Positions 29,446 to 34,252 of a stretch of 64,000 bases of DNA are shown piece after piece (position 1 is the stretch's first letter; the number at the start of each line of letters is the position of its first letter). Below the pieces are notes generated by a model. The model saw nothing but the letters and a program-made list of their open reading frames with translations, was not told the origin of the DNA and did no database searches. Source of the stretch: an uncultured Chloroflexia bacterium (GTDB taxonomy: Bacteria > Chloroflexota > Anaerolineae > Promineifilales > UBA4811). Location: assembly GCA_963695825.1 (NCBI GenBank), contig CAVOHX010000009.1, positions 133,168-197,167 on the forward strand. Reading direction: 5' to 3'. The translations under genes were made by a program, and so were the position numbers.

Positions 29446-30645
29446 ATGAACTCGCGAGAACTCATCGCCTTGGAAAACCAATATGGTGCTCAGAACTACC
29501 GTCCCCTGGATGTGGTCATCGACCGCGCGGAAGGGGTGTGGGTCTATGATGTGGATGGGAAGCGATACCTCGACTGTTTGAGCGCCTACTCGGCCGTCAA
29601 CCAGGGGCACTGCCACCCGCGCATCGTGCGCGCCCTCCAGGAGCAGGCTGAGAGGGTGACGCTGACGTCGAGAGCCTATCGCAATGCCCAATTGGGCCTG
29701 TTCGAAAAAGAGCTTTGCGAGCTGACCGGATACGAGATGGCGTTGCCAATGAACTCGGGCGCTGAAGCGGTAGAGACGGCCCTCAAGGCGGCGCGAAAAT
29801 GGGGTTATCGCGTCAAAGGGGTGCCGATCGATCAGGCGGAGATCATTGTATGCGAGGGCAACTTTCACGGCCGGACGATCACTGTTGTTGGTTTCTCGTC
29901 CAATCCCGAATACCGGAATGGGTTTGGCCCCTTTACTCCCGGCTTTAGAATGGTCCCATTTGGGGACGCAGAGGCGTTGAGAGCGACCATCACGCCCAAT
30001 ACGGTAGCCTTTCTCGTAGAACCCATCCAGGGAGAAGGGGGCGTGATTGTGCCGCCTGATGGTTACCTTTGGGAGGCGGCTGAACTCGCCCGCGAGCACC
30101 AGTTTCTGCTCATGACGGACGAGATCCAATCCGGGCTCGGTCGTGCGGGTAAACTGTTCGCGCATCATTATGACAACGTGCGCCCTGACGTGGTGATGTT
30201 GGGCAAGGCGTTGACTGGTGGCGTCTATCCCGTATCAGCGGTGGTGTCGGATCGCCAAGTGCTTGGCCTCTTTACTCCAGGTGAACACGGCAGCACCTTT
30301 GGCGGCAACCCGCTGGGGGCGGCCGTGGCGCGCGAGGCGCTGCGTGTGCTGGTGGAGGAAGGGCTATTCGAGCGCTCGGCCGATCTGGGAGCCTATTTCT
30401 TGGGCAGGTTGCAGAGACTCGAGAGTCCCTTGATCAAGGAGGTGCGCGGGCGGGGGCTCTTTATTGGGCTGGAACTTGATCCCCAAGCTGGCGGCGCGCG
30501 GCGCTATTGCGAGTTGCTGAGCGACCGCGGTCTGCTATGCAAGGAGACCCGAGTGCACACCATCCGCCTGACCCCGCCCCTGGTAATCACCAGGGAAGAG
30601 ATCGACTGGGCGATGCAGCGGATCGCTGACGTGCTAGACGGGTAG
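29446..30645 (+). CDS. rocD: Ornithine--oxo-acid aminotransferase (class III PLP aminotransferase).
   Basis: N-terminal [61 protein letters not shown] and LGKALTGG (PLP lysine) are collinear with RocD/OAT. Confidence 0.88.
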
Positions 30646-31596
30646 TCTGTCCGTGTTGCCTTGCCCCTGGCCCCGTACCTGGGCTTGGTCGCCTTGATGT
30701 TTCAACAGTTCTGAGAGAGGGAGCGCGTTCCCGCCCACCCACACATGCGGGTCGATGGAGCGCTGCTTGATCGGCCGCAACGGGACAAAGCTCTCCACCT
30801 CGGCTATTGGTGGGTGCTCCAGCTTATTGAACAGCGCAGTGATGCGTGCATCACCAGACCCCCGTAGTTTGCGCTCTACCTCGTCGTCCGTCCCCATCAG
30901 ATCATCACGATCGATCACACCGCTTTCCAGGCCAATCTCGATGGCTTGGGCCAGCGACTCGTACAAGTAATTCTCCAACTGGCTGGCCCACCAGGTGTCG
31001 TTCATGTGCTGGAACAGCGTGCCAAAGCGGCCGCCGGCCGCCGGTGACTGCATCACGATCTTGCCCTTGTGAACGAGCAGATCATCAAGGATTCCCTGGG
31101 CTCCGGCGGCCGAGATCTCGCCGACGGCGATCGCATCGCGCAACGAATAGTCGATACGATCGGCGCAGAGCGCGGGCAGGGGCTGCTCCAGCAGGGTGTA
31201 CTGGTGCTCTGCCAGCATGTCTGGGACAGCGTACCCCAATTCCTCTATCGCCGTGCGGATATCGGGCCGGAGCAAAAAGCGCTCCTTGAGTTGTTCGTGA
31301 AGATCCTGCTCTTGCGAATACCAAACAATGTCCACCACGTGGGAAAAGGCCAGGTGGCTGATATCGTGCAGCAGCCCGGCGATTTGCTCTTGCTCGGAGG
31401 CCTGGAGACGTCGCAGCAGCAGGTAGACGCCAAGCGAGTGTTCGAAACGGGTGACGGTCTTGCAGAGGTGGGCGTACTTGGAGGCGCCTGACTGGCTGAT
31501 ACCGCGCAGGCGCTGAAAGGTGGGACACTCCACCAGCCGGTTGACCCGAGGGTCAAGAGTCCAGGCGCCGTAAAGAGAGTCGTTGTAGGTGTGCAC
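30634..31596 (-). CDS. HD-domain phosphohydrolase of the SAMHD1/COG1078 dNTP triphosphohydrolase-like type.
   Basis: Motifs present: [31 protein letters not shown]. Confidence 0.7.
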
Positions 31597-31619
31597 CGGC
31601 GGCCCGAGTCAGCGCCCCG

Positions 31620-32504
31620 CTAGAGCTTGGGAAGCACGATTTCCTGTTGGCGCTGGTACTTGCCCTTTTTGTCCGCGTACGAGACGCTGCACTCTTGGTC
31701 GGCCACAAAAAAGAGCACCTGGGCAATTCCCTCGTTGGCGTAAATCTTGGCCGGCAACGGGGTGGTGTTTGAGATCTCGAGGGTGACAAAACCCTCCCAT
31801 TCGGGTTCGAACGGCGTGACATTGACGATGATGCCACAGCGCGCGTAGGTGCTCTTGCCGACGCAGACTGTGAGCACGCTGCGCGGGATGCGAAAATACT
31901 CGATGGTCCGGGCCAGGGCAAAAGAGTTGGGTGGGATGATGCACTCGATTCCGCGAAAATCGACAAACGATTGCGGGTCAAAGTTCTTGGGGTCCACGAT
32001 GATCGACTTGGTCGATTTCAGGTGATCCAGCACGGCCGCGGCCGCGCTCTGTTTGTCGGTCAGGTAGGGAAAGACCTGGGACAGGATGTACTGGATGTCG
32101 GCCGGACGGGAAACGAGCAGCTCATAGTGGGTTTTTGCGCCCAGCGGCTGTTCGCTAATCCGGCCCGTGCCCACCACCGCACGGACGTTTTCGAGCAGCG
32201 GCCGGTTGGCGCTACCAAACGCGAGCCGCGCAGTCTGAAACCCCTCTGGAGTGGGCGGCATGACGCCGACATAGCCCTGCCCGTCGATCAGCCCGGCGAC
32301 ATAGCCGCGCTGCATGTCCGAGAGCTTGGCGGCCGTAATCTCGGGTTGAAAGATCTTGAATTCATCTGCCACGCGGATGTCATAGCCATAGGAAGACACC
32401 CCGTACGAGATTACGCCATCCCGAATCTGTCCCTCCACAAAGGGTTCGATCATGCCGTGCTCCAACGCCATCTCTCTTATCCAGCGATCTGGTTGCAGTC
32501 CCAT
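31620..32504 (-). CDS. dcd: dCTP deaminase with an in-frame insertion of about 108 residues that has a LAGLIDADG-endonuclease fold.
   Basis: The flanks match short-form Dcd almost residue for residue: [15 protein letters not shown]...[15 protein letters not shown] on one side, and [15 protein letters not shown]...[51 protein letters not shown]...YADKKGKYQ on the other. The insert contains [11 protein letters not shown]. Confidence 0.85.
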
Positions 32505-32559
32505 GTTGCTCCATTCAGGTGTGTGTAGGGTGGTAGGCAGTGCGCCTGCGCTTGGCAGG

Positions 32560-34252
32560 CTACATGCGATCTGGTGCGTTCATTCCCATCAGGTTCAGCG
32601 TGCGAGCGAGGATGATCTGGGCCGCCTGTACCAGCCTGAGGCGGACGGCCGTCTCCCCGGCCTTCACCCCGGGCTCCCCGCTCTTGCGCGGCAGGACCCG
32701 GCAATCGCGGTAAAAGATGCTGAAATGGTTGGCCAATTCCTGCGCGTAATAGGTGAGGTGGTGGGGCGCGAGGTTGACGGCCGCCATCTCGATCACCGCG
32801 CTCAGGTCCACCATCTTGCGAATGAGTGCAAGCTCGGCCGGGTGAGTCGAGCAAGCTCACGTCACCTCCCTCGGCGCTGTACCCACGCTCCATTGCCTCG
32901 CGCAGGATGCTTGCGATGCGCGCGTGGGCGTACTGGACATAGTAGACTGGGTTACGATCCGACTGCTCTTTGGCAAGCTCGACGTCAAACTCCATCTGGC
33001 TGTCGGCCGCGCGTGAGAGCAGGGTAAAGCGGACGGCGTCGGCGCCTACTTCGTCGATCAGCTCACGCAGCTCGACGATGGTTCCTGCTCGTCGTGACAG
33101 CCTGAGGTCCTCACCACCCATCTTGATGGTCACCAGTTGGTACACGATTAGCGTCAGCCGGTCTGGATCCAGTCCCAGCGCCTGCATCATCGCCTTCATC
33201 CGTGGAACGTGGCCCTGGTGATCAGCTCCCCAGACGTCGATCACCCAATGGTGGCCCCGCTCGACAAACTTGTTGTAGTGGTAGGCAATGTCAGAGGCAA
33301 AATAGCCCGGTTGGCCGTTTGAGCGGATGATCACCTCGTCCTTGAGTTGATCGTCGTATTTTGAGGCGGTGAACCAAATGGCGCCGTCCCGCTCAACCAG
33401 CGCATTCCTTAGGCGGAGGATGGACATAATGGTCTCGAACTGACCTTCCTGGTAAAGACTCGTCTCGTGGAACCAGTTGTCATAATCGATCCCAAGATCC
33501 GCACAGTCCTTGCGGGCCCGTGAAAGCACCTTGTCCTCCAGGCCGATATTCCTGATCGCCTTGAGCGCCTCGTCGCGCGGCGTCTCCAGATAGGTCCGGT
33601 CGTGCTCGGCGGCGATCTCTTGTCCCCATTGGACCAGGTAATCGCCCTGATAACCGCCGTCTGGCACCTGAACATCGTGGCCCAAGGCCTGAGCATAGCG
33701 GGCAAAGATGCTCTCAGCCAACAGGTCCATCTGGTTTCCAGCATCATTGACATAATACTCCCGCTGCACCTGGTATCCGGCGGCCGCCAACACGTTGGCA
33801 ATGCCGTCGCCCAAAACCAGGTTGCGCCCGGTGCCCATGTGCAAAGGACCTGTCGGGTTGGCGCTGCCATACTCGACCTGGACCCGTTTGTCATCCCCCA
33901 GATTGATGTCCGCATAGGTACCGCCCTGGTCCAGGACTGCGTTCACCTGCGTCTGCAACCAATCGGTTGCCAGGGTCAGGTTGATAAACCCAGGATGTGA
34001 GACGGTGATCTCCCCAATATAGTCGGTAGGGGGGAAGCGTTTTACCACCTGGGCCGCGATGTCCATGGGGGGCATCTTGGCCAGGCGCGCCATGGCAAGG
34101 CAGACGGGGGTGGCATAGTCTCCGAACTCGGCCGATTTTGGTCGCTCGATGACTATCTCGGGGATATCGAACCGCGGCAGGTCTTTTTTCTTTTGCGCCT
34201 TGCGGATGGCCTGATGGATCTGCTGCGAAAGATCATGTTGGATTCGAGGCAT
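32560..34252 (-). CDS. argS: Arginine--tRNA ligase, with one frame break near 32848.
   Basis: The class I motif region includes [11 protein letters not shown]. The anticodon-binding tail ORF (32560-32814) ends ...NAPDRM. The join reads ...LLDSP|[12 protein letters not shown]. Confidence 0.9.

Follow-up and report, generated by a model that had tools for sequence, protein, structure and literature searches.

A LAGLIDADG domain, probably nuclease-dead, inserted in frame inside the dCTP deaminase of Anaerolineae as one branch of a same-site insertion family

From our analysis of a 64,000-nucleotide stretch of an uncultured Chloroflexia bacterium (GenBank assembly GCA_963695825.1, contig CAVOHX010000009.1, positions 133,168 to 197,167; the whole stretch is called the window, and positions count from its first letter), the dcd gene, which encodes a short-form deoxycytidine triphosphate (dCTP) deaminase (Dcd), was found to carry in frame a LAGLIDADG domain of the homing-endonuclease type. 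The gene (31620..32504, minus strand, like all parts of it given below) encodes 294 residues and was identified from the open reading frame (ORF) list, from matches to TIGR02274 and Pfam DCD, and from the match of its AlphaFold model to the Dcd structure 4DHK. The best overall explanation, to which we assign a probability of about 0.7, is that the domain is a fixed, nuclease-dead member of a family of homing-endonuclease insertions that lie in frame in their host gene without splicing. The initial annotation of this DNA, which dealt with the single gene, had read the segment as a fossil or domesticated homing-endonuclease module. Profiles, structure prediction, family comparison and the ratio of nonsynonymous to synonymous substitution rates (dN/dS, omega) all agree with that reading; the insert is real, but the gene proves to be one branch of a same-site family, some members of which seem native and mobile.

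The window Dcd passes the NCBIfam equivalog TIGR02274 with 143.4 bits (cut-off 92.8). The TIGR02274 and Pfam DCD matches are each broken into two stretches by the insert, and the catalytic motifs GKSTYARCG and VTLEISNTT are unbroken. The N-terminal segment (residues 1-52, 32349..32504), which ends in ...EFKIF and contains a modelled strand at residues 40-52, aligns residue for residue with the plain Dcd of three loci (L036-L038) and with PDB entry 4DHK, and the C-terminal segment (residues 168-294, 31623..32003, to LPKL) also aligns with plain Dcd and 4DHK. With the insert swapped for the normal loop, the protein matches the Burkholderia thailandensis Dcd 4DHK over its whole length (E 7e-94). 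In the second of two AlphaFold models, the non-insert part superposes on 4DHK in Foldseek with a template-modelling (TM) score of 0.92 and a root-mean-square deviation (rmsd) of 1.9 Å over 280 columns; therefore, the two halves of Dcd come together in a single intact fold that spans the insert. The intact motifs, together with an omega of about 0.05 in the flanks, suggest that the insert-bearing Dcd of the window is a working enzyme.

The insert occupies residues 53-167 (32004..32348), as delimited by alignment with insert-less Dcd, profile matches, AlphaFold and Foldseek, and comprises an N-linker of about ten residues, a core, and a C-linker of about five (KSTKS). It lies between the strand ...EFKIF and ...VDPKNF and replaces the ancestral loop TNVYSA, so that about 115 residues stand in place of a loop of 6-7 residues after ...EFKIF, a net gain of about 108 residues over the plain Dcd of 184-186 residues. 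An extent of 32025-32348 (residues 53-160) had been given in the initial annotation, which was essentially right, although the alignment puts the end of the insert at residue 167. The LAGLIDADG motif (residues 68-77, 32274..32303) was located by hidden Markov model (HMM) alignment to I-CreI. It is followed by four beta strands with helix alpha2 (residues 101-111) between two hairpins (residues 78-128, 32121..32273; from DSSP of the models, column entropy and omega), and then by helices alpha3-alpha4 and the C-linker (residues 129-167, 32004..32120; from the HMM alignment, near-invariant columns and omega). The counterpart of I-CreI residues 12-108 and the two linkers use up the whole insert.

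Searched alone, the window insert matched Pfam LAGLIDADG_3 with an E-value of 0.079 and 13.7 bits, under the cut-off of 22.5, and its best LAGLIDADG chain in the PDB was 3e54 (E 0.46). As these single-sequence searches were marginal, a family profile was needed. The profile of 33 inserts covered I-CreI residues 12-108 and matched single-chain I-CreI (7.6e-16), single-chain I-MsoI (7.1e-15), I-CvuI (1.8e-10) and native I-CreI (about 5e-7); its PDB matches overall ranged from E 1e-16 to 1e-7 and included the rps3/LAGLIDADG fusion proteins I-OnuI and I-LtrI. A phmmer search against 1.84 billion representative proteins gave 283 matches at E<=1e-3, the best of them outside Dcd (E 9e-14 to 3e-10) being proteins of 100-400 residues with one or two matching stretches and Pfam-certified as LAGLIDADG. 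When 147 of the phmmer matches were scanned with Pfam, LAGLIDADG_1 was found in 84 and LAGLIDADG_3 in 80. In both AlphaFold2 models, the insert folds as alpha-beta-beta-alpha-beta-beta-alpha-alpha with a predicted local distance difference test (pLDDT) score of 84-95. The first model was made from a shallow, over-conserved alignment, and its Dcd part is poor; the top 50 PDB matches of this model in Foldseek were all LAGLIDADG enzymes, led by I-CreI (E 5.5e-8, rmsd 1.6-2.0 Å, 112 columns). The second, from a more diverse alignment, has a mean pLDDT of 89.7 over the whole protein, with the two linkers least confident, and its insert again matches I-CreI. The insert is a single-motif, I-CreI-type LAGLIDADG domain that folds independently and is joined by two linkers to an intact Dcd fold. 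An in-frame LAGLIDADG-fold domain inside dCTP deaminase, as originally proposed, is thus borne out by profiles, both models and Foldseek, which recover the fold and leave Dcd intact around it, and the block-by-block pairings with I-CreI given in the initial annotation are the same as those of the HMMER alignment.

The state of the domain was judged from its metal site, charge and conservation. Gln76 (codon 32277-32279) stands opposite the metal-binding D20 of I-CreI in the HMM alignment, as the initial annotation had noted for the motif Asp, and the window copy thereby lacks the acidic metal-site residue of single-motif LAGLIDADG enzymes. Across 121 sequences of the clade, this position is Q in 74, E in 21, R in 15, H in 5, K in 4 and D in 2, i.e., acidic in 23 (19%), and Y68, A70, G71 and D74 never vary; in the closest free-standing relatives, Glu is nearly always found at the equivalent of position 76 (consensus AGxxDGEG). 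The net charge of the inserts averages about -1 (range -6 to +4; window copy +1), compared with +7 in the I-CreI core and a mean of +6.1 in the closest free-standing relatives (174 aligned domains, 94% of them with a positive charge). The hairpins that match the DNA-contact parts of true enzymes have the highest column entropy; residues 78-128, the counterpart of their DNA-contact saddle, are the variable portion here. The lowest entropies belong to the linkers, the LAGLIDADG helix, the GTG turn and helices alpha3-alpha4; although synonymous sites are saturated, both linkers and many of the polar positions show over 97% invariance across the 121 sequences.

Omega, estimated by the Nei-Gojobori method, was 0.1-0.2 for the whole insert and 0.04-0.06 for the Dcd flanks (median 0.050 in the region comparison), with medians within the insert of 0.20 in the hairpin (sheet) columns (residues 78-99 and 115-128) and 0.057 in the helices and linkers; these values are approximate because dS is near saturation for many pairs. 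Omega is the same in pairs of the E type and of the Q/K/R type, and therefore the selected property is not nuclease activity. Taken at the level of sequence, these observations indicate that the domain of the window clade is catalytically disarmed and that its helices and linkers are under purifying selection as strong as that on the enzyme. The window insert would accordingly not be a nuclease, and its DNA binding is probably gone too.

Dcd homologs with the same insert, which the initial annotation had suggested looking for, turned out to be numerous, all of them metagenome-assembled genomes (MAGs) or metagenomic contigs. The first word-indexed protein search returned 2 relatives, and it was the genome scan and the profile search that revealed the family. 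In the scan, with one genome per species, the same insert was found at the same site in 31 genomes, with 39-86% identity to the window segment; 30 of these are Anaerolineae-type Chloroflexota MAGs (Ardenticatenales, Anaerolineales and Thermoflexales), and the other is a short contig binned as WOR-3. The profile search yielded at least 120 distinct clusters (at 90% identity) of insert-bearing Dcd of 280-312 residues, all annotated merely as dCTP deaminase. The family falls into two sub-groups, group A (the window and L001-L004) and group B (the remaining loci), and insert identity follows flank identity (Spearman 0.79). Monophyly of the two groups versus plain alleles is not resolved by the Dcd-flank identities (0.83, 0.84 and 0.82), and synteny was used instead: the gene of arginyl-tRNA synthetase (ArgRS) lies directly upstream of dcd in nearly all loci of groups A and B and is not upstream of plain Dcd in L036-L038. 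These comparisons argue for vertical descent of the insert, together with the ArgRS-dcd synteny, through a large Anaerolineae clade in which it has long been fixed.

Three genomes (L031, L033 and L035), whose flanks nest in group B at 0.91-0.94 identity, have lost the domain and retain different linker remnants (L031:96-653, L033:5881-6438 and L035:5881-6432); ArgRS is directly upstream in two of these three loci. The scars read FQ-LKSSRSIV-VDPK in L033 and FQPD-KSIV-VNPK in L035, compared with the ancestral FTNVYSAVVDPK, and short sequence similarity is seen at the scar junctions (e.g., CTC/TCGGAC ... GTC/GTGGAC in L031). By their remnants, these are three independent in-frame deletions, i.e., natural "delta-insert" variants, so Dcd can evidently do without the domain.

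Beyond this clade, a search seeded with the divergent Dcd P0010 found a LAGLIDADG insert at the identical dcd site in P0272/P0273, P0275, P0280/P0284, P0291 and P0293/P0295, Dcd lineages whose flank identity to the window goes down to 0.62. Several of the lineages are native-like, with a DGEG motif, an NTNRELLE block, K/H-rich hairpins and a net charge of +2 to +5; the acidic metal-site residue is present in P0010, P0272/3, P0275 and P0293/5, and the LAGLIDADG_3 gathering score is exceeded by P0010, P0272, P0275 and P0293. Their contexts are diverse: P0273 lies behind ArgRS like the window gene, P0293 beside a class II ribonucleotide reductase, and P0275 and P0291 in ordinary bacterial settings. 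On sequence grounds, the window gene belongs to a family of LAGLIDADG insertions at exactly one dcd site in several Dcd lineages. As a side observation, the class II reductase next to P0293 (JGI 3300047160) is 1192 residues long with an interrupted Ribonuc_red_lgC match, so that it may itself contain an intein or another insertion. Between P0280/P0284 and P0272/P0273, the flanks are 84-87% identical and the inserts 35-44%; P0280 and P0284 have the degenerate motifs DSDS and DGQA, the net charge of P0284 is -6, and in this sister lineage the native-like element seems to be in decay.

The P0010 subfamily, distinguished by an extra N-terminal loop, also includes Dcd proteins (P0274, P0289, P0292 and P0296) with a pristine loop KNTHCAE rather than a scar. 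Locus L039, which encodes P0010 with the insert, is syntenic with L040 and L041, which encode P0274 without it, with 85-94% identity to either side of the site; between L039:657-1613 and L040:3001-3654, 434 bp of L039 replace 80 bp of L040. L039 and L040 have a guanine-plus-cytosine content of 64-67%, unidirectional small ORFs and two more indels of about 400 bp between them. Their neighbouring ORFs had no match in Pfam, PHROG or the phage database, and the likeness of their Dcd to that of phages is unspecific; an identification as phage was dropped, and the contigs are at most possibly phage-like. Immediately 3' of the P0010 insert, identity is 75%, with indels, versus 94% further on, which is only suggestive of possible co-conversion and is not relied on here. 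P0010 and P0272 share 58% identity in the inserts and 64% in the flanks, whereas the inserts of other pairs with equally distant flanks are 27-37% identical. The shared site, the presence/absence pair and this identity outlier imply site-specific lateral acquisition (homing) somewhere in the family, and the native-like members together with that pair indicate mobility at this site elsewhere than in the window clade. The viral contig scan and the phage tblastn search with the insert gave no match, and a metagenome scan with the native-like inserts found 56 LAGLIDADG loci, none of them in dcd.

The empty site, e.g., in L036 or L040, lies around ...GAGTTCAAGATCTTC/ACCAAT.... Directly 5' of the insertion point, the conserved Lys-Ile-Phe codons often form a palindrome of 8 bp, AAGATCTT (32350-32357 in the window; also in L002, L006, L007, L031, L033, L037 and others), which may be no more than chance. 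A pseudo-palindromic site is the expected target of a homodimeric LAGLIDADG enzyme.

Other explanations of the window insert differ mainly in whether it is removed, active or useful. We give almost no credence to removal of the segment before the enzyme works, be it by proteolysis, as an intron or as a cryptic or atypical intein. Dcd is indeed known to harbour inteins, and that of cyanophage CL131 has been shown experimentally to excise itself (PMC6293099), but they sit at the catalytic motif GK/STYARCG, a different site. Ser167 at the downstream end of our insert would suit an intein; however, its junctions (F52/Q53 upstream, T165-K166/S167 downstream) are without His-Asn, none of the Hint or intein-splicing families of Pfam was detected in the window protein or in the 33 inserts, and the endonuclease core fills the length with no room for splicing blocks, for which reasons an intein was ruled out in agreement with the earlier reading. 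An intron, likewise discounted from the start, was ruled out because the Rfam scan of the window detected neither an intron nor any other RNA family at gathering scores, because a threshold relaxed to E<=1 brought up nothing of relevance over 31400-32700, and because the segment is in frame; its low dN/dS and freely varying synonymous sites fit a translated protein and not a ribozyme. The lack of splicing apparatus and the near-invariant linkers suggest that the insert would stay in the mature Dcd. A separate observation concerns P0285 (232 residues on a 934-bp contig), in which an intein C-terminus ...GIVVHN is joined to the Dcd STYARCG and followed by a second Dcd start at VVSYG; it is probably an assembly chimera, and it shows that some dcd alleles contain a true intein at GK/S, like that of CL131. 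Also quite improbable, though to a lesser degree, is a window copy that still works as a homing endonuclease or sequence-specific DNA binder, serving mobility or dcd autoregulation. The fold is intact, the small residues of the LAGLIDADG helix are retained, the equivalent of I-CreI K98 is conserved, and I-CreI D20N binds DNA without cutting it (title of PDB 1t9i). Against these stand the Gln at the metal site, the charge (+1 in the window, about -1 in the family, +6 in relatives), the DNA-contact strands as the most variable columns, and a descent that is strictly host-correlated within the clade; in addition, the insert has no counterpart of I-CreI beyond residue 108, including the C-terminal loop described as essential for DNA binding and cleavage (title of PDB 2o7m). 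The earlier suggestion that DNA binding survived the loss of the Asp is doubtful given this charge difference and a DNA-contact face that is the least conserved part.

A pure passenger or fossil is a tenable, if tentative, alternative: the origin would be the same, but the domain would have no host function and would be kept only since precise in-frame deletions seldom arise and an insert that misfolds or is partly lost would ruin an essential enzyme. The three independent viable deletions, the loss of the catalytic residue and the charge, and the freely varying exposed sheet fit this view, and conserved core helices with a variable surface are the pattern that folding constraint alone would give. 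It is less at ease with helices and linkers that evolve as slowly as Dcd (0.057 vs 0.050), with polar positions and both linkers above 97% invariance in 121 sequences, and with retention in at least 120 clusters across Anaerolineae orders. Between an integrated module and a passenger, we lean slightly, and with well short of firm confidence, to the former. In the other direction, a living mobile class is conceivable and is offered with similar reserve: LAGLIDADG elements would home in frame, without intron or intein, into the dcd loop and be expressed within the enzyme, native-like (DGEG) members would be moving between bacterial and phage-like dcd, and the Anaerolineae copy would have been exapted as a structural or regulatory domain, e.g., linking trimers via the LAGLIDADG dimer interface. 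Several points weigh against our preferred explanation of a fixed, nuclease-dead insertion. About 19% of the clade have Glu or Asp at the metal site, so some copies could keep activity; Lys151 of the window Dcd aligns with the catalytic-pocket Lys98 of I-CreI in the HMM alignment; and a conserved Asn/Asp-Arg pair (residues 100-101) lies close to the aligned position of R51. Charge and conservation speak only indirectly against DNA binding, and the omega values carry the imprecision given above. The strong helix constraint could come from nothing more than a requirement that the domain fold without harm to an essential enzyme, and the viable deletions mean that the domain is not indispensable. 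The case for mobility consists of one contig pair of unassigned nature and identity outliers, with a modest putative co-conversion tract, and both retention in the mature protein and Dcd activity with the insert are presumed from sequence.

Under the preferred explanation, a LAGLIDADG gene of the free-standing type would have entered dcd by homing, at the conserved stretch around ...EFK(I/V)F/...VDPK, and the linkers of the element itself would have taken the place of the loop. No splicing would be needed because the site is a loop that tolerates an independently folding excursion. The disarmed domain would then be translated and kept as part of the mature Dcd, with its helices and linkers, at about even odds, structurally integrated, most plausibly either by pairing between Dcd trimers via the LAGLIDADG helix or by packing on the enzyme. 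Since single-motif enzymes usually bury this helix at the two-fold interface of their dimer, and since its small residues do not vary in the inserts, trimer pairing would be the most concrete hypothesis.

Among known systems, the homodimeric single-motif enzymes I-CreI, I-MsoI, I-CvuI and I-Vdi141I share with the insert the fold, the core of I-CreI residues 12-108, the small helix residues and the K98 equivalent. Although members of the I-CreI group are free-standing or intron-encoded, basic, and have Asp or Glu at the metal site, the dcd insert is a non-basic domain within another enzyme, with Gln at that site, shorter hairpins and no counterpart of I-CreI 109-153. WhiA and intron maturases are cases in which the LAGLIDADG fold has stayed under selection after loss of the catalytic acids; the dcd insert is likewise a dead fold, but those proteins are stand-alone with demonstrated roles in transcription or RNA splicing, whereas its role is putative. 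The rps3/LAGLIDADG fusions of fungal mitochondria (I-OnuI and I-LtrI) are likewise direct in-frame insertions into a coding gene without an intron or intein of their own. They are double-motif, appended or fused, and organellar, and the displaced host C-terminus is duplicated in them, whereas the dcd insert is internal, single-motif and in a bacterial enzyme. LAGLIDADG inteins, including the CL131 Dcd intein in the same host enzyme family (PMC6293099), are also in-frame selfish insertions in a conserved gene; unlike the dcd insert, which has none of these traits and sits in a loop, they have Hint blocks and double-motif endonucleases, occupy catalytic-motif sites (GK/S in Dcd) and are excised. 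Also close in arrangement is the recently described ShiLan domain of actinophage DNA methylases, an in-frame read-through homing insertion with no detectable splicing that was proposed to stay as a loop (PMC11855218). There, the HNH nuclease is encoded out of frame, the in-frame product is not the nuclease, the phage gene is non-essential and the insertion is not fixed, whereas in dcd it is the nuclease fold that is read in frame, and it has become fixed in a bacterial clade. What places the dcd insert among splice-free in-frame homing insertions is its recurrence at one site across several Dcd lineages, together with the one syntenic pair with and without it, splicing being presumably absent. 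In the searchable literature, we found no paper linking LAGLIDADG with dCTP deaminase, and a family of splice-free in-frame homing-endonuclease insertions is apparently undescribed.

To our knowledge, homing endonucleases are thought to persist in genes only by way of self-splicing introns or inteins, or else to lie between genes; the dcd insert points to a third route by which selfish elements may settle inside genes. It also presents the LAGLIDADG fold as an internal domain of a housekeeping enzyme, without splicing apparatus, that has been kept for very long in an abundant bacterial class. As native-like, degenerate, dead-but-conserved and deleted copies all occur in the family, the fate of such an element after fixation (decay, loss or exaptation) is directly testable. 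For protein engineering, it offers a natural case of a trimeric enzyme that accommodates a domain of 110 residues in one of its loops. For annotation, the databases name all these proteins simply dCTP deaminase.

The genes next to dcd in the window were also inspected. Directly downstream, an HD-domain gene (30634-31596, minus strand) resembles the HD region of SAMHD1 over its first ~90 residues (E ~1e-9) and matches Aquifex 2HEK (E 4e-14). The likeness to SAMHD1 that had been pointed out for this gene thus holds, but a joint role of the two genes in the deoxynucleoside triphosphate pool was dropped as unsupported because their adjacency is not conserved, being seen only in the window and, loosely at about 1.8 kb apart, in L001. 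Upstream of dcd, the ArgRS gene (32563-34228, minus strand) is split, with residues 9-480 in frame -1 and 483-569 in frame -2 and the break near 32838-32849. Either a single-base error in the assembly or a true frameshift in this essential gene would account for the break; the ortholog in L001 runs in a single frame.

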